32,534 bases of DNA from a virus. The stretch is taken from the IMG/VR virus record IMGVR_UViG_3300035510_000237, one strand, 5' to 3'. Below are positions 262 to 30,252 of the stretch, piece by piece. The stretch's first letter is position 1; each line of letters opens with the position of its first letter. The translations under genes and the position numbers were made by a program. The notes beneath the pieces are model-generated. The model had not been told where the DNA came from. It did not search any database and saw only the letters and a list, made by a program, of their open reading frames with translations.

Positions 262-290
262 TTGACATAAGAAAAAAAATATTATATAAT
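262..290 (+). promoter_or_regulatory. sigma70-type promoter (TTGACA-17-TATAAT)
   Basis: TTGACA at 262-267, 17-nt spacer, TATAAT at 285-290, upstream of the small ORF at 329. Confidence 0.5.
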
Positions 291-328: not shown

Positions 329-523
329 ATGAAGAAAAAAGAGCTATAGGCTCTAGCGAAAAAGATTGCTAACGCAGAATATATCATTTAGCACAGCGAT
401 GATAAAAAGGCTATCGCAAGAGCGCAAGAGGAAACTATTAAACTTTGTAGTCATGTTGATAGTCTTGATGACATTACTTTAATAGATGAATATGTTCAAG
501 AATATTTAAGAAAAAAATCTTGA
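329..523 (+). CDS. hypothetical small protein (64 aa, 2 in-frame TAG read as Gln)
   Basis: ATG at 329 and TGA stop at 521-523. Two internal TAG codons (EL-TAG-AL and II-TAG-HS). The gene overlaps the -35 box of the next promoter. Confidence 0.45.
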
Positions 524-548
524 CAATTTAAAATTTTTTTGTTATAAT
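519..548 (+). promoter_or_regulatory. sigma70-type promoter
   Basis: TTGACA at 519-524, 18-nt spacer, TATAAT at 543-548. It is followed by the RBS AAGGAG at 597-602. Confidence 0.45.
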
Positions 549-613: not shown

Positions 614-877
614 ATGGCAATGAGCGAGAAGTCTAAGAAGATTTTTGAGTATTTGAAGAGCATTAATGGTGCTAATGTTACTGCTGCTGATGTGGCAACT
701 ACCCTTGGCCTTGAGAAGCGTACAGTTGATGGCGCATTCACTTCTGCAATTTAGAAGAAGGGCTATGGTATTCGTGTTCCCGCAGAGGTTGAGCTGCCAG
801 ATCACTCTCATGCAAAGGTGAAGTTCCTCCAGCTGACTGACGAGGGCATGGCGCTGGATCTTGACTCACTTGAGTAA
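614..877 (+). CDS. winged-helix DNA-binding protein (87 aa, 1 TAG), paralog of 3412-3768
   Basis: RBS AAGGAG, ATG at 614, TAA at 875-877. Reads ...ADVATTLGLEKRTVDGAFTSAI(TAG)KKGYGIRV, which is HTH-like and resembles ...KDIAEGLFVSSRTVSGAFRKLVSDGFVEKV in the 3412 gene. Codon usage is GC-richer than in neighbouring genes. Confidence 0.55.
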
Positions 878-886
878 TTAATTATA

Positions 887-918
887 AAGGGGTAGAGTAA
901 TCTGCCCCTTATTTTTAT
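887..918 (+). terminator. rho-independent terminator
   Basis: 10-bp stem AAGGGGTAGA/TCTGCCCCTT with one G-U pair and a GTAA loop, followed by ATTTTTAT. Confidence 0.7.
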
Positions 919-924
919 AAAACC

Positions 925-1914
925 ATGTTTATTATTTATATTTTAATTGGTCTAATTGTTGGCGCAATTGCTGCATATTTAATTATTAGGCCAAAATTAA
1001 AAACTACTCAAGTGGCAGACCAAGAAACCGCTAATAAAAATCAAGAACTTTTAAATAAAAACAAAGAATTATCTAAAGAATTAAATTAGCGACAAGAAGA
1101 ATTAACTTCTTTAAATCAGTAGATTTATATTCTTGACGATAAAAAAATTAGATATACAGAAGAATTACAAAACCAAATAGACCAAAGTAAAGAGATTGCT
1201 AAAACTATTTATGACCAAGATTTAAAACTTGCTAAGAATCAACTTGAAAAAGATAAAGAGCAATTAAAAAAAGATTATTAGCAAGCTTCACAAGAATTTT
1301 CAGAAGCTTATTTAGAATCATTAAATGATTCCGCTAAATATTTTACTACTACTATTACCAGCAAAAAAGAAACTCTTGATGCTTTAGAGGAGTAGATTGC
1401 TCAATATAATAAAGATATGTCTGCAATGGTTGAAGCTAATAAAAGAGCAGAAGAAATATCTTAGCAATCAAATTTTTATCGTTTAAATCTTTCTGATGAA
1501 GATATTGAAGAAATTAAAAAGTTGCGTTCTATTATTCCTTATTTAAGGAACCCAGAAGCTTTAAATAAAGTAATTTGGAAAACATATTATGAAAAGCCTT
1601 ATTCAGATTTAGTTGGCCGAGTAATTGGAACCGGAGTTCATACTGGAATTTATAAAATCACAAACCTAGAAAACGGAATGTGTTATGTAGGCTAGAGCGT
1701 AAATTTGATAGAACGTTGGCGGCAACACATTAAACGAGGTATTGGCGCAGAAACGCCAACCCGCAATAAATTATATCCAGCCATGTTAGCTATTGGAGTT
1801 GAAAATTTCACTTTTGAAGTTATTGAGGAATGTAGTAAAGATTAGCTGGATGAACGAGAAGATTATTGGCAAAACTATTTCCACTCAAATGAGTTTGGAT
1901 ACAGCATTAAATAA
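925..1914 (+). CDS. membrane-anchored coiled-coil protein with C-terminal GIY-YIG nuclease domain (329 aa, 8 TAG)
   Basis: The N-terminus MFIIYILIGLIVGAIAAYLIIRP is a transmembrane helix. About 200 aa of K/E/Q-rich coiled coil follows. The C-terminus GIYKITNLENGMCYVG(TAG)SVNLIERWRQH...NFTFEVIEE is a GIY-YIG domain. TAG occupies the conserved Gln of YIGQS. The stop is TAA at 1912-1914. Confidence 0.65.
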
Positions 1915-1927: not shown

Positions 1928-2215
1928 TTGGTTAGAATTATTGATAAGAGAGCATCAGGAAAAACAAGCAGACTTATGCTAATCGCAAAGGAAAATAATG
2001 CTACATTTGTTTGCTCAAATCCAGCTGTTATGGAAGCCAAAGCTCATGCTTATGGTATTGTAGGAATTAATTTTATTTCCTATAGAGACTTTTTAAAAAG
2101 AAGTCAACAGCCTTTTAATTATGTAGTAGATGAATTAGAGAATTTTATTGCTTATATGAATACTTATGAAAAGCGTGGAAAAATGATTGCCTATAGTCTG
2201 AGTAATGAGGAGTAA
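1928..2215 (+). CDS. hypothetical protein with P-loop-like motif (95 aa)
   Basis: TTG start 9 nt after AAGGAG. The 17-nt RBS context AAGGAGATTATTTAATT is identical to the one at 597-613. The motif DKRASGKTSRL resembles a Walker A. No internal TAG. Confidence 0.45.
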   Translation: MVRIIDKRASGKTSRLMLIAKENNATFVCSNPAVMEAKAHAYGIVGINFISYRDFLKRSQQPFNYVVDELENFIAYMNTYEKRGKMIAYSLSNEE

Positions 2216-2220: not shown

Positions 2221-2586
2221 TTGGAATTTAGAAATATTAGAACTTTTAATTGGGAAAATGCGCTGAGGGGAATGCGCAATCCTAAAGAGTCATATGATAG
2301 AATTGACAGCTAGTATGGTATTGCGCCTTATGATGCTTATGAGGATGTCGTAAATACTTTTATCTAGGAATTAGAGCCTGACGCAGAATATTCAGAAGAA
2401 TTTTATCAGAATAGTATTATTCACGAAGGTATTCTTGGGGATGATTCTTATATTGAATATGCTATGATTGGCCCTAAAGACATGAAGCTGGCGCAGACTC
2501 TTATTAAGGCTGGCCCAGAGCATCGTAAATTTCTACGTTAGATTTTCGTGAGTGTAGATATTACCGCTCCGTTATACTGGTATTAA
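2221..2586 (+). CDS. Thy1/ThyX-like (flavin-dependent thymidylate synthase-like) protein, exon 1 (3 TAG)
   Basis: TTG start after GAGGAG. Reads ...IKAGPEHRKFLRQIFVSVDITAPLYWY, which resembles the ThyX segment ...GHE-P-EH-F-F-V-APIF-. It ends in TAA at 2584-2586, directly before the intron-like sequence. Confidence 0.45.
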
Positions 2587-2899
2587 GGAGAAATTCTTTC
2601 TGCCAATGAAATACTTTTCCTAGTTATCGCTAGGGGTTGCGGATTTCCAATTTTTTGGTAAAACGCAGCTAACGGGGAACCACCCATTGGAATCCCGTGG
2701 GAAACTAATTGAATGATTAGAACCTGTAGAGACTATTCCCTAAGCCTTATGGGCAGGGAAGTAGGGCTACTATTGATACGTAGTTATGTTTTAGGAAACG
2801 AAGCATATGAAAATCGAAATGGTATCCTTCACAAGAAGTAAAAGATAGTCCACAAATGGGAAAGAATTTGATACCTACAAAGTCGGCACTGTCGCTAAC
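2587..2899 (+). mobile_element. ORF-less group I intron (approximate bounds) splitting the thyX-like gene
   Basis: A GC-richer non-coding insert. The core R-like element GTAGAGACTAT (GACTAT at 2731-2736) and the S-like element AAGATAGTCC (ATAGTC at 2845-2850) can pair as P7. Short hairpins are present, for example CCCA...TGGG at 2688-2706. Confidence 0.5.
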
Positions 2900-3340
2900 T
2901 CAACCTCCACCATGCACAAGATTCAGAGTAAGCCCATTACTATTGATTGTTTTGAGATTGATGATTATACACCACTTACTACAACTCTTCCATATGGAGA
3001 AAATCAGACAATCGAAGCAAATGTTTTTGAGGGTATTACAATTCCTTATCTTGAGGCTCTTCGTAATAATTATAATGAAACCAAAGATAAGAGAATCTGG
3101 AAGGAGCTTATTAGAGCGCTCCCTGAATCTTGGCTTCAAACTCGAACTGTTACTATGAATTATGAAAATCTTCTTAGTATGTGTTCAAAGAGTCAACGTA
3201 GATTCCATAAGCTAACTGAATGGTCTGGCGATAGCGAAGATTTCGTTACACCTAGTTTTATTAAATTTGCGCGCAGTCTGCCCTATGCGCAAGAGTTCAT
3301 TTTTATTGATGAAGGGCAACAAGAACCAGTAAATGAATGA
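2900..3340 (+). CDS. Thy1/ThyX-like protein, exon 2 (5' boundary approximate)
   Basis: Reads ...WKELIRALPESWLQTRTVTMNYENLLSMCSKSQRRFHKLTEW, which matches the ThyX C-terminal pattern R-x-LP-x4-TR-x3-T-x-N-x3-L-x6-R-x3-H-x3-E. TGA stop at 3338-3340. No canonical RHR(X)7S motif was located. Confidence 0.45.
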   Translation, partial: STSTMHKIQSKPITIDCFEIDDYTPLTTTLPYGENQTIEANVFEGITIPYLEALRNNYNETKDKRIWKELIRALPESWLQTRTVTMNYENLLSMCSKSQRRFHKLTEWSGDSEDFVTPSFIKFARSLPYAQEFIFIDEGQQEPVNE

Positions 3341-3347: not shown

Positions 3348-3376
3348 TTGACTTTTTAAATTAAATATGATATAAT
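3348..3376 (+). promoter_or_regulatory. sigma70 promoter with extended -10 (TTGACT-17-TGaTATAAT)
   Basis: TTGACT at 3348-3353 and TATAAT at 3371-3376. The motif ATATGATATAATATATATA is repeated at 5934-5952. Confidence 0.5.
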
Positions 3377-3411
3377 ATATATACAAGATATAGAAAGTGA
3401 GTTTTTAGAAA

Positions 3412-3768
3412 ATGACTAAAAAGCAAGAATTTATCGAGTATGTAGAAAATTTAATTAAAAATCAAAATGAACCAATTGAAATGAGTGAAAGTGTTCGGTT
3501 TTATTGGGAAGCCCTTAAAGCTGGACAAAACACAAAAGAAAAACCACTTTTTACGGATAATGGAAAACTTGTTCTCCAGTATATGAAGGATAATCTTGAT
3601 ACTGAAATGTGGAAATCTAAGGATATTGCAGAAGGCTTGTTTGTTTCTTCTCGTACTGTATCTGGAGCTTTCCGCAAGTTGGTATCAGATGGCTTTGTAG
3701 AGAAGGTTGGAGAGAATCCAACAATATATACATTAACCGAAGATGGAAAGAATATTGTAATTGAATAA
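3412..3768 (+). CDS. winged-helix DNA-binding protein (118 aa), paralog of 614-877
   Basis: ATG at 3412, TAA stop. HTH-like region KDIAEGLFVSSRTVSGAFRKLVSDGFVEKV. No TAG. Confidence 0.55.
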   Translation: MTKKQEFIEYVENLIKNQNEPIEMSESVRFYWEALKAGQNTKEKPLFTDNGKLVLQYMKDNLDTEMWKSKDIAEGLFVSSRTVSGAFRKLVSDGFVEKVGENPTIYTLTEDGKNIVIE

Positions 3769-6661: not shown

Positions 6662-7912
6662 GTGACCAGTATAATTCAGGTAATTGGTTGTGTATTTAAT
6701 ACACCACAACTTTTGGATTATACTGATAAGTATACAATTATAGATGAAGATTTCCCCAATTCATTCCATAAAATTGTATTTGGGGCAATTTATAAACTCC
6801 ATGAATTAGGGTCAGAAAAAATTACGCTAGAAACAGTTTCAGATTTCTTATCTTCTCGCCCAAAAAGCTATGCCATTTATCAAAAAGAAAAAGGCGAAGA
6901 ATGGTTAATGAATGCGTCAACTGCCGCAGTTGAGTTATCTTTTGATTATTATTATCATAGAATGAAGAAAATGACTTTGCTTCGAGCTTATGATAATTGC
7001 GGTATTGATGTCAGTGATATTTATGACCCAGACAATATTTTAGATACAAAAAAGAAACAGCAACAAGAAGATTATTTAGATAATTCTTCACTTGACCAGA
7101 TTGCTGATAAAATTGATGAAAAGATTAGTTCTATACGACTCCAATATGTTGATGACGCTTATGGAGAAGCATATCAAGCAGGTGATGGAATTATGGAGTT
7201 AATTGATAAATTTAAAGAAGCTCCAGAAGTAGGTATTCCATTATATGGTCAGTTAATTAATACGGTTACGCGAGGCGCAAGATTAAAAAAGTTTTATCTT
7301 CAATCTGCGGCCAGTGGTGTTGGTAAGACTCGTAGCATGATTGCGAATGCTTGTTTTATTGCTTGTGATAAGATTTATGATGAATCATTCGGATGGATAA
7401 AGAATGGGACAAAAGAGCCTACTTTATTCATTACAACAGAGCAGGAACTTGAAGAAATTCAAACTATGATGTTAGCTTTTCTTTCAAATGTAAATGAGGA
7501 ACATATCTTAAATGGTTCTTATGAGGGCAATGAAGAAGAAAGAGTGCGGGAGGCCGCAATTTATCTTTCAGAAAGTCCTTTATATATTGAAGAACTTCCT
7601 GATTTTTCATTAAAGGATGTTGAAGATAGAATAAAGAAGAATATAAGAGATCATGATGTAAAGTATGTGTTTCATGACTACATTCATACCAGCCTCAAGA
7701 TTCTCGAAGAGATAACTCGTCGCAGTGGTGGAATTAAACTCCGAGAGGATAATGTCTTGTTTATGCTATCTACAAGGCTTAAAGATATGTGTAATAAATA
7801 CGGTATCTTTATTATGTCCGCAACTCAGTTAAATGCGGACTATCAAGAATCTAAAACTCCTGACCAAAATCTACTTCGTGGTGCAAAAAGTATTGCTGAT
7901 TGGACAAAGTAA
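6662..7912 (+). CDS. dnaB: DnaB-like replicative helicase, exon 1 (start codon uncertain: GTG at 6662 or earlier)
   Basis: A DnaB N-domain pattern is followed by Walker A SAASGVGKT and ...IMSATQLNADYQESKTPDQNLLRGAKSIADW. That last segment aligns to the DnaB motif SQLNRSLEQR...SDLRESGSIEQDAD. The ORF then stops in TAA at 7910-7912, at the point where the intron begins. Confidence 0.8.
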   Translation: MTSIIQVIGCVFNTPQLLDYTDKYTIIDEDFPNSFHKIVFGAIYKLHELGSEKITLETVSDFLSSRPKSYAIYQKEKGEEWLMNASTAAVELSFDYYYHRMKKMTLLRAYDNCGIDVSDIYDPDNILDTKKKQQQEDYLDNSSLDQIADKIDEKISSIRLQYVDDAYGEAYQAGDGIMELIDKFKEAPEVGIPLYGQLINTVTRGARLKKFYLQSAASGVGKTRSMIANACFIACDKIYDESFGWIKNGTKEPTLFITTEQELEEIQTMMLAFLSNVNEEHILNGSYEGNEEERVREAAIYLSESPLYIEELPDFSLKDVEDRIKKNIRDHDVKYVFHDYIHTSLKILEEITRRSGGIKLREDNVLFMLSTRLKDMCNKYGIFIMSATQLNADYQESKTPDQNLLRGAKSIADWTK

Positions 7913-9075
7913 TTGAATAATTTACTATCAATTTTTATATAGATTAAGGGATAAAGCGAAAATCTATATAAGGAGCGATAAATATGAAAAAAATAGAATT
8001 AACACAAGAACAAATAAGCCAAATATTAAACTTATATAAGAATAATTACTCTCAACAAAAGATTGCTAATATTTTAGAGGTATCTAGGCCTGTTATAAAA
8101 AGAGTTCTTACCGAGAACGAGGTTCTGTTAAGAGAAAGAACTCATAAATATAAAGCAGATTATGATATTTTTGAAAATATAGATACTCCAGAAAAAGCTT
8201 ATTGGTTAGGTTTTATAGCAGCAGATGGTTGTAATTATTAGAGAGAGAATAATTCTTCAATAATCATTTCTATAAACTAGAAAGATATTGACCATTTAGA
8301 GAAATTTAAAAAATTTGTAAATACTAATGCTGAAATAAAACTTTTTGAGCAAGATATGGGGTATTCAAATAAGACCTAGATGTGCAAAATAGTTTTAAAT
8401 AGTAAAAAAATGAGTAATGATTTATATGATAAAGGTATAGTGCCTAATAAAAGTTTAATATTAGATATTCCAAAAATAGATGAAAAATATTATTATCCAT
8501 TTATTCTAGGATATTTTGATGGTGATGGTTCTATAAGTAAAACTAATTGTTATAATAATTATTGTATTAGCTTTCAAGGAACTAAAGAAATTTTAAATTG
8601 GATAAATAATTTATTTGAAATTTCAAAATTGGATAAAAGATAGAAAGAAAGTTCTAAGAATAGTTATTATATTAGGTGTGGTGGAACTAATAAACCATAT
8701 AATATATTAAAATAGCTTTATGATTCTTGTGAAGTTCATTTAGATAGAAAATATAAATTATTTAAAGCTTTGGAAACAGTCGTCCTTAGTAGAAATACTA
8801 AGTGATTATTAGACCGAGAATTGCTGGAAAACCCTTAGAGCTAATTAAACTACAACGTAAATATGAAATAAAATTAAGCGTGAATGTTTGAAAATTAATT
8901 AGATTGGGTAATCAGCAGCCGAGCCTTGAAGAGAGGAAGGTTCAACGACTATCTGGTAGCGCAGAGTAGCAGAAATGCGAAGTACGGTCTACCTAAACTC
9001 TTAATAAAAGAGCAGGGTAAAGATATAGTCTACTCCTTTATGAAAATAAAGGTATTAAGGAAAATTGATTATGGT
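7903..9075 (+). mobile_element. group I intron (approximate bounds) in dnaB, carrying a LAGLIDADG homing endonuclease ORF
   Basis: The core R element GGTTCAACGACTATC (GACTAT at 8947-8952) and the S element AAGATATAGTC (ATAGTC at 9025-9030) match the IA-type consensus. A P9-like hairpin CCTTTA...TAAAGG lies at 9036-9053. A 10-bp hairpin at 7936-7970 sits just before the endonuclease RBS. Confidence 0.6.
7984..8805 (+). CDS. LAGLIDADG homing endonuclease with N-terminal HTH (273 aa, 5 TAG)
   Basis: RBS AAGGAG, ATG at 7984. Two LAGLIDADG motifs, LGFIAADGC and ILGYFDGDGS. TGA stop at 8803-8805. Internal TAGs at 8239, 8278, 8380, 8641 and 8713. Confidence 0.75.
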
Positions 9076-9339
9076 AGTATTTTACTTCTTGTTAAAGATG
9101 AAGATTTGGAAGCTCTTGAACCAGTTTTGTCGGCAAATGTCTTTGACAAACCAACAATTAAAATGTCTGTTTATAAAAATAGACGAGGTAAATATAAGGG
9201 TGTTTATTTATGGTGTAGAGCTGATTTGGGAACCTGTAGAATAAATCCTATGTTTTGTACCACCTGGGATTATGAAGTAATAAATGTAAATAATATTCGT
9301 ATTATTGTCGATGGTGACAATGAACAAAATTGGAATTAA
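9076..9339 (+). CDS. dnaB: DnaB-like helicase, exon 2 (5' boundary approximate)
   Basis: Reads ...SILLLVKDEDLEA...KNRRGKYKGVYLWCRADLGTCR, which aligns to the DnaB C-terminus ...DADIVAFLYRDDYY...KQRNGPVGTV-L-F. TAA stop at 9337-9339. The track ORF beginning at TTG 8926 is intron sequence read in the same frame. Confidence 0.6.
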   Translation, partial: SILLLVKDEDLEALEPVLSANVFDKPTIKMSVYKNRRGKYKGVYLWCRADLGTCRINPMFCTTWDYEVINVNNIRIIVDGDNEQNWN

Positions 9340-9353
9340 GGAGAAACTAATTT

Positions 9354-9545
9354 ATGAATATGCTTGATTTTAAAAGACCTATTGAATATAAGATGCCCAA
9401 TGCTATTGCTGTAGGATATTTGAAGGCTAATAAGGCAATGAAGTCTAAAGACCCAAATCATGCTAAGTCTCAGGAATATCTTTGTAAGATTGTGAATGAG
9501 GAATTTGGAATTAGAGGAAATTGCGTTAAAGTAATTACTTTTTAA
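9354..9545 (+). CDS. hypothetical protein (63 aa)
   Basis: RBS AAGGAG 7 nt upstream of ATG. No TAG. Confidence 0.4.
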   Translation: MNMLDFKRPIEYKMPNAIAVGYLKANKAMKSKDPNHAKSQEYLCKIVNEEFGIRGNCVKVITF

Positions 9546-9546
9546 T

Positions 9547-10647
9547 ATGCTGTCTTTTGATAAAGATGAAATTAAGGAGCAGTTGGATATAGCCGATATA
9601 TTCCAACTGCTTTTTGATTTCGGGGGAAATCCCAAGTATACAGATTTTGGAATTATTTCTCAGACCATCTGCCATAATAAGCCAGGAGAAGGAAGTTATA
9701 AACTTTATTACTATGAAAATAGTCAAGCTTTTTATTGCTATACCGATTGTGGATTTTTGGATATTTACACTCTTGTAATTAAAGTCGCAGGTATTCAATT
9801 CAATAAAAACTATAATTTAAATGATGCCATTAGGTGGGTAGCAAATAGATTTAATATTAGTGGTAGTTATGAAAGTGAAGCTAGTGAACAATTAGAAGAT
9901 TGGGTTTATTTAGAAAATTATAAAAGGATTGAAGAAATAAATCCAACTTCAAATGAGCAGATCACCTTAAAAGAATATAACAATAAAATTTTATCTCGAT
10001 TAAATTATAATGTTAATATTACACCTTGGTTAAATGAAGGAATTACTCAAGAAGTCTTAGACTTGGCTATGATTGGTTTTTACCCTGGAGGCGACCAGAT
10101 AACGATTCCGCATTTTGATAAAGATAATCGTTTTATAGGTTTGCGCGGCCGTACACTATCTCTTGAAGATGCTGAAAAATATGGGAAATATCGACCCGTT
10201 AAAGTAGGAAAACAACAATTCAATCATCCTCTTGGAATGAATCTTTATGGTTATAACTGGAATAAAGACAATATCCGAAAAATGAAAAAAGTTATTGTTT
10301 TTGAATCTGAAAAATCGGTTTTAAAATATGCTTCTTATTTTGGATGGCAAAATAATATTTCAGTTGCGTGTTGTGGCAGTAATATATCTTCTTATCAAAT
10401 GCGACTATTATTCGATTTAGATGTCGAAGAAGTAATTGTTGCTTTTGATAAGCAGTACCAAGAGTTAAACACTGACGAAAGTAAACAATGGAAAAATAAA
10501 CTTTTAAAGATTTATAATAAATATCACCAATATTGCAATATTTCTTTTATGTGGGATAAAGGTCATTTACTTGGTTATAAAGATTCTCCAATTGACGATG
10601 GAAAAGAAATTTTTCTGGAGCTATTTAAAGAAAGGGTTATATTATAA
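9547..10647 (+). CDS. dnaG: DnaG-like DNA primase (zinc-binding plus TOPRIM domains; 366 aa)
   Basis: Zinc-ribbon motif CHNKPGEGSYKLYYYENSQAFYCYTDCG and TOPRIM-like segment VIVFESEKSVLKYASYFG...VACCGSNIS...EVIVAFDKQ. Confidence 0.7.
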   Translation: MLSFDKDEIKEQLDIADIFQLLFDFGGNPKYTDFGIISQTICHNKPGEGSYKLYYYENSQAFYCYTDCGFLDIYTLVIKVAGIQFNKNYNLNDAIRWVANRFNISGSYESEASEQLEDWVYLENYKRIEEINPTSNEQITLKEYNNKILSRLNYNVNITPWLNEGITQEVLDLAMIGFYPGGDQITIPHFDKDNRFIGLRGRTLSLEDAEKYGKYRPVKVGKQQFNHPLGMNLYGYNWNKDNIRKMKKVIVFESEKSVLKYASYFGWQNNISVACCGSNISSYQMRLLFDLDVEEVIVAFDKQYQELNTDESKQWKNKLLKIYNKYHQYCNISFMWDKGHLLGYKDSPIDDGKEIFLELFKERVIL

Positions 10648-10650
10648 ATA

Positions 10651-10956
10651 ATGAAAGGCATAATTTGGTGTACAGAAATTGAATTAGGGAAAAAGCAATT
10701 AAAAGATATTATTTATAATTATGTAGATTACGGGAAAATAGAGCTTAATAGAATTTAGCAAAGTAGAAATAAAACTTTTGCAGAGTTTAAAAATGGAGAT
10801 ATTTGGGAAGTAGCACTGGCCAGCGAGTCAGCAAGAGGTAAACGTTGTAATATTTCATATATTCAAGAAGGTATTCCACAGATTCTCATTGATACAGTTA
10901 TCAGACCTTCTACAATAGCAAGACCCTTTAACGGATTTTATTATTATTATCCCTAA
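10651..10956 (+). CDS. hypothetical protein (101 aa, 1 TAG)
   Basis: ATG at 10651 directly after the primase TAA. One internal TAG (NRI-TAG-QS). TAA stop at 10954-10956. Confidence 0.4.
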
Positions 10957-11052
10957 AAGAAAGAAAAGAGTTGAATAAAAATAGATTATAAATTAATTAA
11001 TCCAATAAATAATGAATTAACAATTACCTAGCAGATTTTTGCAAATAGAGGA

Positions 11053-12681
11053 ATGAAGCCACCAGAAACAGACTTTTATCTCCATTTAGATGATAGTATT
11101 ATTTATCCAGCTGTTTTAATTGATAGAATGACTGATGGCGCAAAAATGCTTATCCAGCATATCGTTAATAATGATAATATTTTTATCCAAGTGGACAGTG
11201 ATGCTGATGGATACACGTCTTCGGCGATTTTAATTAACTATTTAAATAAATTATTTCCGCACTATGTCTCTGAACATTTGACCTTCAGGCTTTAGGATGG
11301 CAAACAGCATGGAATTATTTTGGATACTATTCCTGACGATACTAAACTTGTAATTGCACCAGACTCTAGCAGTAATCAGTTTGATGAACACCAGCAATTA
11401 AAAGATAAAAATATTGATGTTTTAGTTATCGACCATCATGAGGCTGAAAAAATTTCAGAAGCAGCTTGTATTATTAATAATCAACTTTGTGATTATCCTA
11501 GTAAGTCTTTATCTGGCGCAGGAATGGTTTATAAATTCTGTTCATACATTGATTCCATTTTGGAAATTGATTATGCAGAGAATTATCTTGACCTTGCGGC
11601 TTTGGGTATGGTAGCTGATATGATGGATTTGCGTGACTATGAAACAAAAAGATTGATTGATAAAGGTCTCAGTAATGTTAATAACCCTTTTATGCTTGAG
11701 ATGATGAATGTACAAAATTACTCGATTGAGAAGCATGGCGGGTTTGACCCATTTTGTATTAGTTTTTATATCGCACCCCAAGTAAATGCCACAATTCGCA
11801 TGGGCAGCCAAGAAGAGAAATTACTTTTGTTTAAGTCAATGCTAGAGAATTATGCTTATGAAAAGGTTCCTTCCACTAAAAGAGGTTGTAAAGGCCAGAT
11901 GGAAACACTTGTTGAGCAAGCCTGTCGTAATTGTACTAATATCAAAAATAGACAAACTAAAGCCCGTGATGAAGGTTTTGCTATTGTTGAGAGTTTGATT
12001 GAAGAAGAAAATCTTTTAGATAATAAAATTTTATATATACAAATTCCTGAAGAAAAAGCTGTTAATAAGAATTTAACAGGTTTAATTGCAAACCAGCTTA
12101 TGGCAGAATATCAACGCCCTGTTGCTTTGTTAAATAAAGTAAATAGAGACGGTGCAACATTTTGGGAAGGAAGCTGCCGCAATTATGATAAATCTGCCTT
12201 TACGAATTTTAAAGATTTCTTAAACAATAGCAATTTAGTTGATTTTGCAGAAGGACATCAATCTGCTTTTGGTCTTGGGGTCGCAGCTGACCAAATGGAG
12301 AATTTAATTGAATATACAAATACTGCTCTCGCAGATTTCTCTTTTTCACCTCATTATGATGTTGATTTTATTTTTAGCGGTAGCAATTTTAGTCCGGCAG
12401 ATATTCTTGAAGTCGCTGAGTTAAAATATTATTGGGGACAGGGTTTATCTGAACCTTATATTGCGATTGAGCGAATTAATGTCACTAAAGACAATATTCA
12501 ATTACTTTCTCCAGACAAACATCCTACTTTAAAAATTACTCTTGCCAATGGAGTTAGTTTGATGAAATTTAAATCTTCTCAAGAAGAATTTAATAGTTTG
12601 TATAGAGATACCGGTAGTACAGTTATTACAATTATTGGAACGTGCAATGAAAATAATTGGAATGGTAATATTAGTGCTTAG
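11053..12681 (+). CDS. recJ: RecJ-like DHH-family ssDNA exonuclease (542 aa, 1 TAG)
   Basis: DHH motifs DSDADGYTSSAIL and VIDHHE. DHHA1-like segment FAEGHQSAFGLG. The TAG at 11293-11295 fuses the track ORFs 11053-11295 and 11320-12681 in one frame. Confidence 0.7.
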
Positions 12682-20620: not shown

Positions 20621-20630
20621 TTGTTTTATC

Positions 20631-20659
20631 TCAAAACACAAAATATAGTAGACGACTTA
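20631..20659 (+). promoter_or_regulatory. possible promoter (TTGTTT-17-TATAGT)
   Basis: Weak match upstream of nrdD. Confidence 0.25.
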
Positions 20660-20689
20660 AAACAAAACACAAGATGGAGGTATCTATAT

Positions 20690-22918
20690 ATGGCTAAAAT
20701 CATTAAACGTGATGGTTCATTGGCTACTTTTGATAAAGATAAAATCATAAATGCTATTAACAAAGCATTTATCGAAATAGATGGAACTTTATATGAAACT
20801 GATACTGCAAAAGATATTGCCGCAGATATTGAAGATAAGGTCTTAGAAAGTTCTGCAACTATAACAGTTGAAACTATTTAGGATTGGGTAGAAGATTATT
20901 TAATGGCTTCCGATAGAAAAGATGTCGCAAGGTCTTATATTCGTTATCGTTATAAGAAAGAAGTTGTAAGAAATCTTCATAGTGATTTCTTTGATGCTAT
21001 TGGAGAAAAACTTTCAGCTAGTAATGTCCAAAATCAGAATGCTAATGTAGATGAACAATCTTTCGGCGGGCGCATTGGAGAAGCCGCAAGTGTAATGACA
21101 AAGAATTATGCTTTGACTCAAATAGTTTCTGAAATGGCTAGAAAGAACCATGAAAATAATGAAATTTATATTCATGACTTGGATAGTTATGCTGTCGGTA
21201 TGCACAATTGTTTGTCAATTCCTTTTGATGATTTGCTCGCCAAAGGATTTAATACCAGACAAACAGATGTGCGGCCAGCCAATAGCGTAAATACAGCTTT
21301 CCAACTTGTTGCAGTTATTTTCCAGCTTCAATCTCTTCAGCAGTTCGGCGGCGTGAGTGCTACTCATATTGATTGGACTATGGTCCCATATGTAAGAAAG
21401 AGCTTTTATAAACATTATGCTAATGGTTTAAAGTATTGTGAACATCAAGAAAAATATATTGATGGATTTACGAGCGAAATGTCAATACATGATAGTGCGT
21501 ATTATGAATATAGCCCATTGGCATATGACTACGCCATGGATATGACAGTTAAAGAAATCTATCAAGCAGTTGAAGGTATGTATCATAACCTCAATACTCT
21601 TCAAAGCAGAAGTGGCAATCAGTTGCCTTTTACTTCTATTAACTATGGTACGTGCACTTTGCCAGAAGGTAGGATGATAACTAAGGCTCTTCTTGAAGTC
21701 TCTCTTGAAGGACTTGGAAAGCTTCATAAAACTTCTATTTTTCCATGTGGAATTTTTCAATGTATGAAAGGTGTAAACCGCGCACCTGGCGACCCTAATT
21801 ATGACTTATATCAGCTAGCATTAAAATCTACAGCACAAAGATTATACCCTAATTACGCGAATGTTGATTGGAGCGGTAATGCTGGCTATGATATTAACGA
21901 TCCTAGAACATACTTCTCAACGATGGGTTGTAGGACCGCCAATGGCTGGGATATTAACGGTTTTGGCCAGCTTAAAGACGGTAGAGGCAATATTTGCCCA
22001 GTTACTATTATTATGCCAACGTTGGCTATGGAGGCAAAAGAAATGGCTTCTAATAGTGATTTTCAAGTTGAGCCTGAAAAAGCTATAATTCGTTCTTTTA
22101 TGACTTTACTTGATGCAAAAATCTGTGAAGCTAAGGATATGCTTCTGGAGCGTTTTAACTGGATTTGCGCGCAAGACCCCTCTAGTGCAAAGTTTATGTA
22201 TGAGAACAATGTAATGGCTGGTTATGTTCCTGAAGAAGGAATTAAAAGCGCGCTAAAACATGGCACTTTAGCAATTGGACAACTTGGTTTGGCTGAGACA
22301 CTTCAGATTCTTGTCGGCTGTGACCATACAGAAGCAAAAGGCATGGAATTAGCTAAGACGATTGAACAGCTATTCAAGGATAGATGTGCTCAGTTTAAAG
22401 AAGAATATCATTTAAATTTTGGTGTATATTATACCCCAGCAGAAAATTTATGCCATACGGCTTTAAAGAAATTTAAAAATAAATATGGTGTAATTGAAAA
22501 CGTATCTGATAAAGATTTCTTTACTAATAGTATTCATGTTCCTGTATGGAAGGAAGTTAGTCCTTTTGATAAAATTGATATTGAAAGTCAACTAACTGGA
22601 TATAGTTCTGCGGGCTGTATTACTTATGTTGAGCTAGATACAAGTGTAAAGAAAAATTTAGAGGGACTTGAAACCATTGTTAATTATGCTATGGACCATG
22701 ATATACCATACTTCGCTGTAAATACAATTAATGACACTTGTTTAACGTGCGGATATACAGATGAAATAAATGATGTCTGTCCTATCTGTGGAGGAACAAA
22801 AATTCAACAATTACGTAGAGTGACTGGATATTTGACAGGTTCGTATAAAGATGCTTTTAACAAAGGTAAGATCCAAGAAACCGAAATGCGAGTTAAACAT
22901 ACTGGGAGACTCGAATAA
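20690..22918 (+). CDS. nrdD: anaerobic ribonucleoside-triphosphate reductase (class III RNR; 742 aa, 1 TAG)
   Basis: N-terminal ATP-cone MAKIIKRDGSLATFDKDKIINAINKA. C-terminal zinc ribbon CLTCGYTDEINDVCPICGG and glycyl-radical motif RRVTGYL. The TAG at 20879-20881 fuses the track ORFs. The ATG at 20690 follows GGAGG. Confidence 0.85.
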
Positions 22919-23604
22919 TGGGTGTTATATATAAATATGAAAATAATATCAACCATCATATTTATATTGGGCAAAGTGTAAATTTAAAAAAGAGGATTAG
23001 AGAACACAAATGCGCGTTCTCTAATCCTAATAACCCAGATTACGACTTCCCAATTCATCGAGCATTAAGAAAATATGGAGTTGAAAATTTTACTATTTCT
23101 ATCTTAGAAGAAGTAGAAGATAACGCACTTGATGAAAGAGAAGTATATTGGATTGCTTATTATGATTCATACAAAAATGGATATAATGCCACCCCTGGAG
23201 GACAAAACGGAGGAAGCTATAATGGGAAAGAAGTTTGTTTATATGATTTAAATGGTAACTTTGTAAGAAGTTATAAAAATGCTAAAACAGCTTGTGAAGC
23301 AATAAAAGTTTCTTATTCTACAATTTAGCAAGTTTTACATCAAAAAAGACCGACCTGCAAAGGCTATTAGATAAAATATAGAGATGATAATAGAGAGATA
23401 AAAAAGTTTAAATCTCGTCAAGGAGGCGCTATACCTATTTATTAGTTAGAAAAAAATACTAATAATATAATTAAAGAATGGGATAGCGCACAATAGGCCG
23501 CTAGGGAATTAAACTTAGACGCTTCTACCATTACAAAATGTTTAAAAGGTAAATTAAAAAGTCATGGCGGTTATAGTTGGAAATATAAGGAGGAATAGAA
23601 ATGA
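22918..23604 (+). CDS. free-standing GIY-YIG homing endonuclease (I-TevI-like) with C-terminal NUMOD/HTH region (228 aa, 5 TAG)
   Basis: GVIYKYENNINHHIYIGQSVNLKKRIREH reads YIGQS with Gln as CAA. C-terminus ...LNLDASTITKCLKGKLKSHGGYSWKY. The start overlaps the nrdD stop (TAATGG) and its TGA overlaps the nrdG ATG. Confidence 0.75.
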
Positions 23605-24080
23605 GATACGCGGGAATTATATATAACGACTTGGCCGCTGCCCCTGGAATATGTGTAACTTTTTTTACTCAAGGATGTAACCGGCATTGTTTAAATTGCC
23701 ACAATCCTGAGACTTGGGATTTCTTTGGTGGGAAAGAGTTCAGTTATGAAACAATAGCTGATATAAAGCAAGCTCTTCGAGCAAATGGAGTTAAAAGAAA
23801 CTTAGCCATTATGGGCGGAGAACCTTTATGCGAAGATAATTTGTTTTTAACGAACCTCGTTATAGAATCAGTGAAAAAAGATTTGCCCGACACGAAAGTC
23901 TATATTTGGACAGGATATACTTATGAAGAATTAATTTTAGAGGAAGGCTCTAGTTCTCTTTTAAATAATATTTTAAGTAATACAGATTGCCTAATTGATG
24001 GGCCATATATTGATAGCGAGAGAGATATTACATTGCATATGCGAGGCTCTCGTAATCAAAGAATTCTTTATAAAGGTTAG
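23601..24080 (+). CDS. nrdG: anaerobic RNR activating protein (radical-SAM)
   Basis: Reads GICVTFFTQGCNRHCLNCHNPETW and an ...IMGGEPL motif. Confidence 0.8.
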   Translation: MRYAGIIYNDLAAAPGICVTFFTQGCNRHCLNCHNPETWDFFGGKEFSYETIADIKQALRANGVKRNLAIMGGEPLCEDNLFLTNLVIESVKKDLPDTKVYIWTGYTYEELILEEGSSSLLNNILSNTDCLIDGPYIDSERDITLHMRGSRNQRILYKG

Positions 24081-24089
24081 GATTTTTAA

Positions 24090-25782: not shown

Positions 25783-26208
25783 TTGAATATTAAGCTTTTA
25801 ACAGATACGGCTAAAGTCCCTTATCGTGGGTCTGCGGCCGCAGCTGGTTACGATATTTATGCAGATGAAACTATTATGATTCTTCCTGGTGAGGTATCTA
25901 AAGTTCATACAGGAATTGCTACTGAACTTCCTGAAGGAACATTTGCAGGCATTTATCCTAGAAGTGGCCTTGCTACTAAGAACGGTCTGCGGTTGGCTAA
26001 TTGCGTGGCTGTTATTGACTCAGATTATCGTGGCGAATGGCTAGTTCCAATTTATAATGATTCTAGTTCTCCTCAGATTATTTCTAAGGGCGACCGCATT
26101 GCGCAGATGGTTATTCATAAATATGAGACTGTTGACTTTAATGTTGTTGATAAATTAAACGATACTATTAGGGGTGCTGGTGGTTTTAATTCCACTGGGA
26201 TAAGATGA
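25783..26208 (+). CDS. dut: dUTP diphosphatase
   Basis: All five dUTPase motifs are present: AGYDIYA, RSGLA, VIDSDYRGEW, RIAQMV and RGAGGFNSTG. Confidence 0.85.
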   Translation: MNIKLLTDTAKVPYRGSAAAAGYDIYADETIMILPGEVSKVHTGIATELPEGTFAGIYPRSGLATKNGLRLANCVAVIDSDYRGEWLVPIYNDSSSPQIISKGDRIAQMVIHKYETVDFNVVDKLNDTIRGAGGFNSTGIR

Positions 26209-26696
26209 TAAAACTTTTAGCCCTTGACTAGGCTTCAAATGTTTCAGGTTGGGCTGTTTTTGAAGATGGAAAATTATTGGAAAGCGGCACCTTTACCGCT
26301 AAAGGAAAGGACCTTGGCGAACGTCTTTATGATATTCGCCAAAAGGTCTCCAACCTTATTTCTAAATATAATATCAATTATTTAATTTTTGAAGATATTT
26401 AGCTTTAGGGAAATGTAACCGGTAATGTCCAAACTTTTAAAGCCTTGGCAGAAGTATTTGGAATTATTTATGAATTGGCCACTGAATTAAATATTCCCAA
26501 CGAGGCAGTATTAGCTAGCTCTTGGAAATCTACTCTTGGCATTAAAGGCCGATAGAGAGCGGAACAAAAGCGAAATGCGCAAAAGTACGTCCTGGAAAAT
26601 TATGGCAAAAAGGTATCTCAAGATGAATCAGATAGTATTTGTATTGGCACACACTATTTCCTAAAGCAATAGAAAGTCTTTGACTGGTCGGATTAA
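26205..26696 (+). CDS. ruvC: RuvC-like Holliday-junction resolvase (163 aa, 5 TAG)
   Basis: Reads MIKLLALD(TAG)ASNVSGWAVFEDGKLLESG and DESDSICIGTHYF, with the catalytic Asp/Glu pattern of RuvC/YqgF-fold resolvases. It overlaps the dut stop. Confidence 0.65.
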
Positions 26697-26770: not shown

Positions 26771-27205
26771 ATGGTGGAATTTGTCATAAAGTACTGGGTT
26801 GAATTTGTATTTGGTTTAATCGTTACTGGCGGAGGTTTGTTCTTAAAACGCTTTTGGACTTTGACCAAAGAAAATTAGCAAAAACAATAGGACGAATTTT
26901 ACAGTAAAATTAAAGAAGAAATCAACAAAAGTACTGAATAGTCCCAAAAGGATGATAGTCTCTTACAGGGTGAAATTGATGACTTAAAGACAGCCATGGA
27001 AGCTCTACGCAATGGAGTATTATCTCTCTAGGGTAGATAGTTCAAAGCAGAATGTATGAGACTCTTAGAAGAGGGACACGAAATCACGATTGAAGAATTT
27101 AAAGACCTAGATAAAGACCATGATGTGTATAACGCTTTAGGCGGAAACCATAATGGCGATCACCTTTATGACTTAGTAAAGAAAAAAGTGGAGAATAAGT
27201 TGTAA
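26771..27205 (+). CDS. single-pass membrane coiled-coil protein (144 aa, 6 TAG)
   Basis: RBS AAGGGGGAG. N-terminal TM helix VEFVIKYWVEFVFGLIVTGGGLFL. TAA at 27203-27205. Confidence 0.45.
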
Positions 27206-27738: not shown

Positions 27739-28158
27739 TTAAGCCACCCTTTCAATAATAATATTTGCGTGCTCCACACTAATGGACTAATCTCCTACAT
27801 TCATGACACTAATCTAAGAGCAGCAGTTTTTTGGTACATCCACAAATACAGAAGAAGAAACATTATTAAAATCTTCTACATCTCCTGGAGTGGAAATCAT
27901 AGTTGTAGATACTATTGGCTCACCATCAATCGCTATTGCTAAACTGGCAGGACCGGCAGTCCCACCAGTAGGTATAGCAATATTGGCACCAAAAGTAATA
28001 CGGTATCTAGCTCGACACTATTGCGTCAAGCCACGTAAAGTTACTAAGCCGCTACCAACCCGATGTAGCATACTACAGTTGCCTGGAATTACAACTGTAG
28101 TAAATAAAATATCTTGATTAGTAGAGACTGTCTGAACAGCATTACTTGTAAGCTCCAT
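27739..28158 (-). CDS. hypothetical beta-rich protein (139 aa, 3 TAG), possibly a C1q/BclA-C-terminal-like domain
   Basis: RBS AAAGGAG 9 nt before ATG (plus CAT 28156-28158). Reads ...GANIAIPTGGTAGPASLAIAIDGEPIVSTTMISTPGD. Confidence 0.45.
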
Positions 28159-28175
28159 AATCTTAATCTCCTTTA

Positions 28176-28889
28176 TCAAGCAGCGCAATTACAGCCGTTA
28201 TAGGTATAACCATATAACTGAGATGCTGGAAATGCTGGAATAGGGGTTGGGCGCAGTTGATTGACCAAATACTGGTTCTGCGAGCACTGTGAAAGCTAGA
28301 AGTTTGCCCCTAAAAGTTCAGTATTCTTAGCTTCTAAACGGTCGCGTAAATCCTGCATAGTATTAGAATTAATCAGAGCGCGAGTAGCTTCGCCTTCCTG
28401 ATGAATAGCGTTAGTGATATCGCAGGTATTCTGCGCAGCAGCATAACGGTTCTCCAGGATATTTTGCTTTACATCACAGCAACAAGATTGCATAGAATAG
28501 CGATTGTCTGCTAGATTTTGATTTACAGTGTCAAAGCCCTGCGCAACAGAACTAAAGCCTGTACACAAATCACGCTGTAAATTTCCAAAATTTGTTAAAA
28601 GAGTAGTATTATTGCTGTAGAATCCATCACATAAACCCTATGAGAGTCCACGAACACCATTTTCAACCTACTGGAAATTCATATCTTGCGCGAGTTCGCC
28701 TCTTGTTAAAGCTCCCTAAGCAGATGAATTATTGCTGCCCCAGGCACCATTACCGCCCCAGCCCATAAACATGAACAGGAACAATATGATAATCCACCAT
28801 GCGCCTCCATTACTCCCACCGAAACCATCTCTATCGCCAGTTACTGCGGCGAGGTCAGATAAAGAATAACCACTTGCTTCGTTAAACAT
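28176..28889 (-). CDS. membrane protein with Gly/Trp-flanked TM helix and Cys-rich C-terminal region (237 aa, 4 TAG)
   Basis: RBS AGGAGG 9 nt before ATG (plus CAT 28887-28889). TM segment GGAWWIIILFLFMFMGWGG resembles the YjcZ-family TM motif. Cys clusters CCCD and YNGCNCAA. Confidence 0.45.
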
Positions 28890-28915
28890 AAAAAATTGCC
28901 TCCTAAAAATATATA

Positions 28916-29149
28916 TTATTTAATCCCAAGCTATTGCTTAAAGGAATTAAATTCGGTATCAAAATCTACGCCTTTCTATTGGCATAGATTACGAGCAATT
29001 TGTTCAATCTCCGCAGTTTTATTATTCTTGGCTAAATTTAATAAATTACTTCCTAATGGAGTATCTGCCATTTGAGATTCTAACATATTCAACACAAATT
29101 GTTGAGGATTACTGCCCATCTACAGAAGGGTCATTGGATTTATATTCAC
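28916..29149 (-). CDS. hypothetical small protein (77 aa, 3 TAG)
   Basis: RBS AAGGAGGG 6 nt before GTG (plus CAC 29147-29149). TAA at plus 28916-28918. Confidence 0.4.
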
Positions 29150-29161
29150 TTATATCCCTCC

Positions 29162-29539
29162 TTAAAAATTATATTCCGTAGATTCATTTGTAGAAGGAAT
29201 CTACGGAAGGGCAGATTTGATCTGGTTAATGGCTGACTCAAACTCTTCTCTTGTTATGTAATTGCCCATATTATTATTTATTTGTTCAGTTGTGGGCATT
29301 TCCTTTAATTCATACATATTGAAAAGCGCTGAGCCATCCATCCCAATCTGTTTAGTATAAATGCGTTTATTTGCCAAATCTGGAAAAAAGAATACTGACC
29401 CATCAAAATCAATAGTGGTGGCTCTTACTTCGTCCAATGAGGATACTGGCCTACCTTTTAAATTATACTATAGCTATTGTTGATAAGTGTTCTATGTCCG
29501 GTATGGCGTTTGTTGCTATGGATAGTAGTTAGTATACAT
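29162..29539 (-). CDS. hypothetical protein with Gln/Tyr-rich N-terminus partly encoded by TAG (125 aa, 5 TAG)
   Basis: ATG (plus CAT 29537-29539) after AAGGAA. Reads MYTNYYPQQQTPYRTQNTYQQQLQYN..., where four of the Gln codons are TAG. An alternative ATG lies at 29581. TAA at plus 29162-29164. Confidence 0.4.
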
Positions 29540-29659
29540 TTTATTTCCTTCTTTCTAACAGTTCTTCTCTAACCCTTCCATAGCTATATAAAAAATAAAT
29601 GGGATAAATTTACTAATTTTGTCCTAAAAACTTAAAAAAATTTTTAATAAAATATAACA

Positions 29660-29716
29660 GAAAAATGGGGAACCGCTCTACCTTTAAAGAGCGGTTCCCC
29701 ATTTTATTTTTTATTA
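29660..29716. terminator. bidirectional rho-independent terminator
   Basis: 13-bp perfect stem GGGGAACCGCTCT/AGAGCGGTTCCCC with T-tracts on both strands. Confidence 0.75.
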
Positions 29717-30106
29717 AGAAACCTTTAATTGATTAACCTGTGACTCAATTTTTTGATTGATATAAGTCTCTAAATCTCCAACAGCAGAAGATAAATAGCT
29801 TTGTGCCTCTTGGCTCAGGATTGTCATAACTGCTTGATAAGTTTGCTAGAAAGCAGCTTTTTGAGCTTCTGTGTCAAAACTACCTTGAGCTTTTAAAGAA
29901 TTTACATATGTTTGATTTGTAGCAGTTACACATTCTGTAATTGTCTAATCTAACATCTCAATATATTTCTTAGTTGTTTCATCCTCTATATTAGAAGTAA
30001 CTTCCTCAGTCTTAGAATTTATCCATTTAACAAAGAAACTCGTTAAAATGGTTAAAAGTGGAATTAAAACAATCTCAAAAATTTCAGTGATTAATTCTTG
30101 TGCCAT
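29714..30106 (-). CDS. holin-like protein: N-terminal TM helix plus long coiled-coil tail (130 aa, 2 TAG)
   Basis: RBS AAGGGAGAG 6 nt before ATG (plus CAT 30104-30106). Reads MAQELITEIFEIVLIPLLTILTSFFVKW..., followed by a Q/E/K-rich helix. Confidence 0.45.
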
Positions 30107-30223
30107 ATAAATCTCTCCCTTCATATTAAATATGAAAAAGTAGCATAATAAATTATCTAACTTAGGCCATTTAAAGATAATAATATTCTACTAAAAATTA
30201 ACAAATATAGAGATAATTTCCAG

Positions 30224-30252
30224 TTGCATTATGATGAAAAAAATGATATAAT
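30224..30252 (+). promoter_or_regulatory. sigma70 promoter (TTGCAT-17-TGaTATAAT)
   Basis: TTGCAT at 30224-30229 and TATAAT at 30247-30252, upstream of the DGR target gene. Confidence 0.5.

Follow-up and report, generated by a model that had tools for sequence, protein, structure and literature searches.

Phage GIY-YIG homing endonucleases of the I-TevI type (TIGR01453; PF01541 with NUMOD) are the known enzymes closest to the protein described here. They carry their catalytic domain at the N-terminus, contain elements such as a linker, a zinc finger, NUMOD or helix-turn-helix (HTH) modules, and occur sporadically. We have analyzed a 32,534-nucleotide stretch of viral DNA, referred to as the window (IMG/VR record IMGVR_UViG_3300035510_000237), in which positions 925..1914 (+) encode a putative nuclease of 329 amino acids (aa). 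It differs from the I-TevI type in several respects: the catalytic domain is C-terminal; a predicted membrane anchor, a stalk, and a new adaptor are found instead of linker, zinc finger, NUMOD, and HTH; a core Asn is Ser in its close clade; and the gene is fixed and apparently universal in its clade.

The GIY-YIG enzyme EndoII (DenA) of phage T4 also works without a separate DNA-binding domain; it binds DNA as an oligomer and starts host DNA breakdown and the nucleotide scavenge pathway (PMC2764454). EndoII was the second-best structural match to the nuclease; however, no specific sequence or structural kinship was found, and EndoII is not its closest relative. Furthermore, EndoII is small and soluble, has neither membrane anchor nor coiled coil, and tells host from phage DNA by cytosine modification. 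Uzume UzuA, PD-T4-3, and PD-lambda-1 are single-gene bacterial anti-phage defence systems, whereas the nuclease is the product of a phage core gene in a replication module; residues 240-326 matched positions 184-275 of the 278 positions of the UzuA model (E = 2.7e-7), which covers the catalytic domain only.

In RNase Y, EzrA, and ZapG of Firmicutes, a membrane helix at the N-terminus is likewise followed by an extended coiled coil in the cytoplasm and then by a functional domain, which acts on nucleic acid or on the division machinery. Similarity of the nuclease to these proteins was composition-driven and stayed below threshold (ZapG NF008672, E = 4e-4 and 20.3 bits against a cut-off of 150; PRK12705, E = 0.043; Pfam ZapG-like, 16.2 bits against 33.5); hence, the likeness is one of analogy and not of homology. 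Protein p16.7 of phage phi29 also resembles the nuclease in layout, combining a transmembrane segment, a coiled coil, and DNA binding. The literature on membrane-anchored GIY-YIG proteins yielded only an unrelated, probably inactive Mycoplasma protein (PMC13621843). For the re-use of a homing-endonuclease-type domain by a phage in a new, non-mobile role, ICP1 Odn provides a precedent, having been described as a chimeric nuclease which confers sequence-specific immunity against the PLE satellite (PMC8263062). The nuclease differs from Odn by its membrane-bound state and the loss of the DNA-recognition part, both deduced from its sequence. Odn is reportedly soluble.

Architecture and genetic code of the nuclease

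We consider it very probable that an N-terminal anchor, a stalk, and a C-terminal GIY-YIG domain without DNA-binding module constitute the conserved architecture of a whole protein family, and that the nuclease gene is a non-mobile core gene. The frame 925-1914 (+) comprises 330 codons without any TAA or TGA up to the terminal TAA; the chance odds of such an open frame, estimated from the base composition at about 34% GC, are about 1e-8. It contains seven in-frame TAG codons (codons 55, 66, 119, 156, 180, 257, and 306, starting at positions 1087, 1120, 1279, 1390, 1462, 1693, and 1840 (+)), one fewer than the eight sense TAG codons counted in an earlier note on this DNA. In a multiple alignment, homologues carry Gln opposite the TAG columns of the nuclease, including the family-invariant Q257 after the YVG motif. 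This comparison indicates that TAG is read as Gln in 925-1914. The earlier note had placed one TAG at a Gln of the catalytic motif; the codon indeed encodes the invariant residue after YVG, but this residue is not among the known catalytic residues of I-TevI.

Recoding is also apparent at the level of the window, where the coverage of the plus strand by long open reading frames (ORFs) increased from 19.8 to 26.9 kb once TAG was treated as a sense codon. In public assemblies, a 99%-identical protein (P0001) is already translated with Gln. An artefact or a pseudogene with true TAG stops could be ruled out, since TAA and TGA are absent, Gln is found at the TAG columns, and unrecoded relatives possess an intact gene. 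ARAGORN detected no tRNA gene in the window; a suppressor, if phage-encoded, is therefore located elsewhere. The orthologues of two related loci, L075 (7932-8846) and L086 (7995-8927), contain in-frame TGA codons at conserved Trp positions (RW and IW motifs). Hence, the family spans phages which use the standard code, TAG as Gln, and apparently TGA as Trp.

The I-TevI-type GIY-YIG domain comprises residues 239-329 (1639..1911 (+)) and ends the protein. The GIY ... YIG motif pair on a three-stranded sheet is present, and residues 240-328 matched residues 3-91 of I-TevI at equal length. Residues Y243, Y254, R264, H268, E312, and S327 thereby map to Y6, Y17, R27, H31, E75, and N90 of I-TevI. Within the GIY-YIG superfamily, the Arg, the His/Tyr, and the metal-binding Glu (R27, H31, and E75 of I-TevI) are conserved, as is the Asn at the core end (N90). 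Among 135 family representatives obtained by clustering at 50% identity, Y243, Y254, R264, H268, and E312 are invariant or nearly so; for R264, H268, and E312, no exchange occurred among 22 close relatives, and conservation in the 135 representatives was 90% or higher. That the catalytic residues are retained at identities as low as 30% suggests that selection maintains an active enzyme.

The match to TIGR01453 was limited to model positions 2-87 of 215, which indicates that the nuclease lacks the half by which a homing endonuclease binds DNA. Consistently, the protein ends 88-99 aa past the GIY motif in all 122 representatives in which this motif was located. Searches of family libraries and searches with an adaptor profile returned no DNA-binding family match anywhere in the nuclease protein. 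Matches to designed pentatricopeptide repeat (PPR) proteins in the PDB were artefacts of summed weak repeats, with no single significant stretch.

The N-terminal transmembrane anchor is formed by residues 2-22 (928..990 (+)) and followed by the sequence RPKLK; the Kyte-Doolittle mean over 19 residues reached 2.82 for residues 3-21. An N-terminal hydrophobic segment was present in 125 of the 134 full-length representatives of the family, and the exceptions resemble truncated gene calls. In all 125 representatives with the segment, Lys and Arg are more frequent on the C-terminal side of the helix (mean 3.5 as compared to 0.1), and the flank preceding the helix is essentially absent. This bias predicts an N-out/C-in topology with stalk and nuclease domain located in the cytoplasm.

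Residues 23-182 (991..1470 (+)) constitute a helical heptad stalk containing no Gly, one Pro, and 21 Lys, 20 Glu, and 20 Gln residues; K, E, Q, D, N, and R together account for 54%. The AlphaFold model showed a single helix over residues 2-181 with a predicted local distance difference test (pLDDT) score of about 80-90. A hydrophobic periodicity of 3.5 residues was evident against shuffled sequences (z = 4.1), with a median z of 3.8 in 123 relatives. Sequence and length of the stalk vary among relatives, while its helical character is kept: the distance from transmembrane segment to GIY motif ranges from 168 to 297 aa (median 213), the stalk sequence is unconserved within the family, and Gly plus Pro amount to 0.7% of family stalks as compared to 9.6% of the C-terminal part.

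Between stalk and catalytic domain, a conserved adaptor of about 55-65 aa was identified from conservation across the 135 representatives (core residues ~183-238; 1471..1638 (+)). Its conservation begins near residue 167, and the module directly precedes the GIY motif. It carries the motifs FYxLxLS..D..EI..LR and LNKVIWKxYYEKP..DLIGRV and was modelled by AlphaFold as three short helices (pLDDT 55-70). Unlike the stalk, adaptor and catalytic domain are strongly conserved across the representatives. A profile built from 45 adaptor sequences gave nothing significant against PDB and Pfam; the N-terminal 238 aa gave only sub-threshold coiled-coil noise (SMC, JetC, ZorA, ZapG, and EMC3) against Pfam, NCBIfam, PHROGs, and PADLOC.

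These results largely bear out the architecture proposed in the earlier note. The N-terminal transmembrane helix was found by hydropathy and is kept in the relatives, the partial TIGR01453 match and the family-wide position of the protein end agree with a C-terminal GIY-YIG domain devoid of a homing-type DNA-binding module, and the N-terminal region matched no known DNA-binding domain in the family libraries or, for the adaptor profile, in PDB and Pfam. The predicted coiled coil of about 200 aa rich in K/E/Q was recovered as a K/E/Q-rich heptad stalk, but its length is about 160 aa and the remainder belongs to the adaptor. Likewise, the catalytic domain lacks a DNA-binding module as supposed, yet it is not bare on its stalk: the adaptor (~170-238) intervenes.

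The family is large. A word-indexed search returned 5,714 matches, the best 120 of which were all 308-336 aa long with 90-100% query coverage and about 50-55% identity. An exhaustive search with the C-terminal 168 aa yielded at least 538 cluster representatives (50% identity) at E below 1e-30; among the matches listed, nearly all aligned at the C-terminal end of proteins of about 280-390 aa. IMG/VR viral contigs carrying the gene numbered at least 485 and were typically 100-200 kb long; it was also present on 16 contigs of metagenome-assembled genomes (MAGs), most of 20-180 kb and many with phage synteny. The latter are probably mis-binned phages. Bacterial homologues were also considered and rejected, the 16 'genome' matches being these MAG contigs. 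Overall, the family was detected only on phage or phage-sized contigs. The phage clade with this gene comprises large (100-200 kb) gut and rumen phages, in which the gene appears to be universal.

None of 120 close homologues and 8 clusters carried an informative name, and Pfam, NCBIfam, and PHROGs contain no family-level model. BFVD provided near full-length matches to two unnamed viral proteins (A0A345BPZ2 and A0A8S5RTR9). A tblastn search of 50,697 phage records with one close and one distant family member detected the module of adaptor and GIY-YIG domain in Phass-1 only (OQ749652.1, locus L004). There, positions 7467-8447 encode an orthologue of 326 aa with transmembrane segment, stalk, and GIY-YIG domain, containing eight TAG codons and read with TAG as Gln. 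Because of these codons, the orthologue is split in the GenBank record into two coding sequences of 141 and 435 nucleotides (nt) annotated as 'hypothetical protein'. The phage Phass-1 has been described, and the nuclease gene is unmentioned there (PMC10607447).

Position and expression signals of the gene

The order of genes around the nuclease gene is kept in about 80 of 100 related loci, down to 30% identity. It comprises gene B, the nuclease gene, a variable slot (orf95/phrog_6721 or ThyA plus DHFR), a second winged-helix gene, and the genes for YorF-like, AAA_24, YorH-like, and DnaB-like proteins; a ligase gene also belongs to this replication-module neighbourhood. To avoid circularity, loci were additionally chosen independently with the YorF-like protein as query, keeping those with enough upstream sequence. 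In all 53 loci thus obtained, the nuclease gene is located 2.1-3.7 kb upstream of the YorF-like marker. Conventional GIY-YIG genes, in contrast, were found anywhere from -8.2 to +7.7 kb in the related loci. The nuclease gene thus belongs to the core of the replication/nucleotide module, where it is fixed in position and inherited vertically. The suggestion of the earlier note that the protein does not act as a mobile endonuclease is thus well supported by the fixed position, the deep synteny, and the variable positions of the conventional endonucleases.

The window itself contains conventional endonuclease genes. A free-standing homing endonuclease of 228 aa with a GIY-YIG domain and two NUMOD1/I-HmuI-like modules is encoded at 22918-23604 (+) and includes five TAG codons. 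Judged by eye, the flanking ORFs are nrdD (20621-22918) and nrdG (23601-24089); the start codon of the endonuclease gene and the nrdD stop codon have bases in common, and its 3' end runs into the beginning of nrdG. The catalytic domain of this endonuclease is 41% identical to that of the tethered nuclease, which would fit an origin of the latter by capture of a local homing-endonuclease domain. A second homing-endonuclease-like gene (7984-8805 (+), 273 aa, five TAG codons), combining HTH and LAGLIDADG_3, directly follows the DnaB-like helicase gene and is present in only 10 of the 100 related loci. In the distant relative L017, the tethered nuclease gene is immediately followed by a tandem pair of genes (8641-10585) for conventional GIY-YIG endonuclease-like proteins of 304 and 348 aa.

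Two perfect sigma-70-type promoters precede the nuclease gene at some distance. The consensus TTGACA-17-TATAAT (262..290 (+), 12/12 match) is located ahead of the small gene A, and a second consensus promoter with TG extension (520..548 (+), 12/12 match) ahead of gene B. A terminator-like hairpin (887-910; 10 pairs, 5 of them GC) followed by a T-tract (together 887..920 (+)) sits between both promoters and the nuclease gene and ends 5 nt before the start codon; no Shine-Dalgarno sequence precedes the ATG. These features recur in the family: of 78 orthologues, 53 have a comparable hairpin in the 70 nt preceding the gene, as compared to 0-15% for neighbouring genes, and a Shine-Dalgarno-like motif was found in 35% as compared to about 99% for gene B and the YorF-like and AAA_24 genes.

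Furthermore, the nuclease gene is rich in TAG codons, which account for 7 of its 24 Gln codons as compared to 5 of 177 in eight core replication genes of the window (Fisher P = 8e-5). In 26 recoded relatives, classed as such from neighbouring genes alone, the shares were 31.5% and 11.3% (P = 9e-27), and the nuclease value was the higher one in 25 of the 26 loci. The first TAG occurs at median codon 45 of the nuclease gene, so that translation could yield no more than the anchor peptide as long as TAG is not decoded as Gln. Taken together, hairpin, missing Shine-Dalgarno sequence, and TAG load suggest a low and delayed production of the nuclease. The description of the locus as two early-looking genes behind strong promoters followed by the nuclease gene therefore holds for the promoters; the nuclease gene, with its hairpin, TAG-rich frame, and lack of a Shine-Dalgarno sequence, does not look early.

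TAG use is bimodal across the genes of the window. The genes for polymerase (0 of 51 Gln codons), helicase (0/16), and primase-like protein (0/17) are free of it and the nrdD-like gene (1/31) nearly so, these labels having been assigned by eye or from the annotation of a related locus (L001). At the other extreme, with TAG shares of 30-75%, are the genes for the homing endonucleases, for a RuvC-like candidate (26205-26696), and for a small membrane protein (26771-27205) as well as a minus-strand block (27739-30418). Within the replication region, the other TAG-rich genes are the two homing endonucleases and the RuvC-like candidate (identified by eye); in relatives, a RecJ-like DHH gene belongs to this group.

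Neighbouring genes

Gene A (329..523 (+), 64 aa) contains two in-frame TAG codons and gave no match in Pfam or PHROGs. Gene B (614..877 (+), 87 aa), which may encode a winged-helix-like protein, showed weak sub-threshold matches to EarA/DUF3489. Of the 100 related loci, 81 contain it at a distance of 300-400 nt ahead of the nuclease start, and in the close clade it is always the gene directly upstream; its local GC content is 47% as compared to 25-30% around it. Gene B and the gene at 3397-3768 (+) share a similar motif (RTVDGAF and RTVSGAF), and of the two only the latter gave sub-threshold winged-helix matches. The nuclease gene and the variable slot lie between these two genes. A near-perfect sigma-70 promoter (3348-3376) is located ahead of the 3397-3768 gene.

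Downstream of the nuclease gene, 14 nt past its stop codon, orf95 (1928..2215 (+), 95 aa) starts behind a strong AAGGAG site. It belongs to phrog_1828 (function unknown) and accompanies the nuclease gene in 41 of the 100 related loci. A P-loop-like GKT was noticed near its N-terminus, and a proper GxxxxGKT is present in locus L072. The next gene (2221-3340 (+)) belongs to phrog_6721 (function unknown) and matches this family end to end only if two ORFs are joined across an ORF-less insert of about 270 nt (~2587-2856). The insert resembles a small intron and, over bases 2721-2806, shares 87.5% identity with Enterococcus phages EF1 and EF5; Rfam detected no RNA family in the window including the insert. 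The phrog_6721 gene carries an insert of about 1 kb in three loci (L011, L032, and L059); in L051, its halves are separated by a GIY-YIG gene. The motifs of phrog_6721 are faintly reminiscent of ThyX, but a first label of 2221-3340 as ThyX was dropped after Pfam and PDB had given no confirmation.

In other relatives, the slot of phrog_6721 is occupied by ThyA plus DHFR, which are found directly downstream of the nuclease gene in L001. In two distant clades (L083 and L017), a confirmed ThyX gene immediately precedes the nuclease gene, its stop codon adjoining or overlapping the nuclease start codon. In L072, the region following the nuclease gene and orf95 (9238-12668) encodes a nucleoside 2-deoxyribosyltransferase, a nucleobase permease of the xanthine/uracil family (Pfam Xan_ur_permease), and another large ORF for a putative multi-pass membrane protein, a nucleobase-uptake/salvage set that is unusual for a phage. 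In Phass-1, NrdD and NrdG are encoded nearby, and the orthologue is located two genes upstream of two suppressor tRNA genes.

Possible functions of the nuclease

We tentatively propose that the nuclease is a domesticated, membrane-tethered homing-endonuclease domain. The catalytic domain would have been captured from a homing endonuclease, lost its DNA recognition, and become fixed to the cytoplasmic face of the membrane. The stalk would oligomerise the protein and thereby bring two or more catalytic domains together, so that oligomerisation would replace the DNA-binding domain as in T4 EndoII, while the tether would confine the nuclease to a layer of about 20-25 nm beneath the membrane. As a result of terminator, absent Shine-Dalgarno sequence, and TAG load, the protein would be scarce and delayed until TAG is read as Gln. 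It might then nick or cut DNA, mainly that of the host, with low specificity, and the breakdown of host DNA could feed nucleotide salvage for phage replication, with the RecJ-like exonuclease, a dNMP (deoxynucleoside monophosphate) kinase, and the thymidylate synthase encoded nearby as possible partners. T4 is protected by base modification; here, the tether and the restricted expression would serve instead. Taken as a whole, including the salvage function, this explanation is somewhat less likely than not to hold; similarly, the cutting of host DNA for nucleotide salvage, judged from the genomic context, is possible rather than probable.

The salvage function is favoured because nucleotide-metabolism neighbours recur in different settings and because T4 EndoII provides a precedent. 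The earlier note had offered host DNA degradation, superinfection exclusion, and defence or counter-defence as roles; of these, the genomic context favours the first.

Several observations weigh against this proposal. No DNA-modification gene was recognised in the window, in which most ORFs were labelled by eye and few were scanned against libraries, and which represents 32.5 kb of a genome of about 100-200 kb; a means of sparing the phage's own DNA is not evident in what was seen. A membrane tether is an odd choice for an attack on the nucleoid, and if nucleotides are needed early, a late-made enzyme is hard to reconcile with that need. The proximity of thymidylate synthase genes may merely reflect the origin of the domain, since such genes are classic targets of I-TevI-type enzymes and a conventional GIY-YIG gene is found inside the adjacent gene of L051. 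Confirmed ThyX or ThyA occurred within 1.5 kb in only 9 of 60 loci; in 24 further loci of the 60, the neighbour belongs to the unannotated phrog_6721 family. The AlphaFold run modelled a monomer with the stalk as a single helix; oligomerisation is suggested by the heptad periodicity of the stalk. The tblastn search of the phage records found no cultured phage with the gene. Additionally, the core Asn is replaced by Ser327 within the GYSIK C-terminus that is invariant in the close clade. Finally, the tether would suit the interception of entering DNA at least as well.

The latter point leads to the main rival, in which the nuclease would exclude incoming DNA of superinfecting phages, plasmids, or transforming DNA by cutting it at the inner face of the membrane. 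The resident genome would have entered before the enzyme is made and would replicate out of its reach, so that place and time, and not sequence or modification, would distinguish self from non-self. The cytoplasm-facing tether with a stalk of limited length and the absence of a sequence-recognition module are in line with this role, and a delayed or low expression would protect the phage's own entry. However, genes for exclusion and defence are usually variable accessory genes, whereas the nuclease gene is universal and fixed in its clade among replication and nucleotide genes, and the similarity to the defence protein UzuA does not extend beyond the catalytic domain. Nucleases are not known among superinfection-exclusion proteins. 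We regard exclusion as unlikely.

Somewhat less likely still is a processing of the phage's own DNA at the membrane, by which the nuclease would anchor the DNA, nick or trim it to start replication, remove branches, or mature concatemers, in an arrangement reminiscent of phi29 p16.7. The core gene is indeed located in the replication module beside the genes for ligase, YorF-like, AAA_24, and DnaB-like proteins, and in the close clade it is always preceded by the gene for a small, probably DNA-binding protein. Against this role, the window already contains the RuvC-like resolvase candidate (26205-26696, identified by eye), no origin-like sequence or specific target was identified, and in distant clades the gene travels with ThyX and not with replication genes; moreover, its TAG load and weak initiation signals are sharply unlike those of the replisome genes.

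It is improbable that RNA is the substrate of the GIY-YIG domain or that the domain has no catalytic activity, the protein then being a membrane scaffold or an RNase-Y-like factor. The combination of anchor and coiled coil resembles RNase Y, ZapG, and EzrA with weak sub-threshold matches, and the last core Asn has been replaced by Ser in the close clade. These matches are compositional and far under the cut-offs, however, and five catalytic residues are invariant over deep divergence. Distant family members retain the Asn in a GYN motif; judged from the sequences, the exchange is conservative and activity is probably retained. All characterised GIY-YIG enzymes known to us cut DNA. Most improbable is a still-mobile, free-standing homing endonuclease directed at the neighbouring gene: an insert disrupts this neighbour in the window, and a GIY-YIG gene does so in L051, but the nuclease has no DNA-binding domain, keeps its membrane anchor in 125 of 134 representatives, and occupies one position in 53 of 53 loci with synteny down to 30% identity.

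Combining the proposed host-DNA cutting with exclusion, a stalk-held, non-specific nuclease gated by TAG recoding might destroy membrane-proximal or entering DNA (host chromosome, superinfecting phages, plasmids) and spare the resident replicating genome, self and non-self being distinguished by place and time. The contrast between TAG-rich DNA-cutting enzymes and a nearly TAG-free replisome would then mark recoding as a safety lock on nucleases. This wider interpretation is doubtful.

The family is abundant, comprising thousands of metagenomic sequences; it is widespread and unannotated, with no name found in the sources searched. It would clearly exemplify the conversion of a selfish homing-endonuclease domain to a core function of phages, and a new form of nuclease control, in which tether and oligomerisation take the place of DNA recognition. 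The protein is small and easily expressed, which makes the key claims directly testable. If host-DNA salvage or exclusion proves true, the nuclease would show how phages with unmodified DNA restrain a non-specific nuclease from self-attack, and it would provide a concrete example of stop-codon recoding which times a dangerous enzyme.

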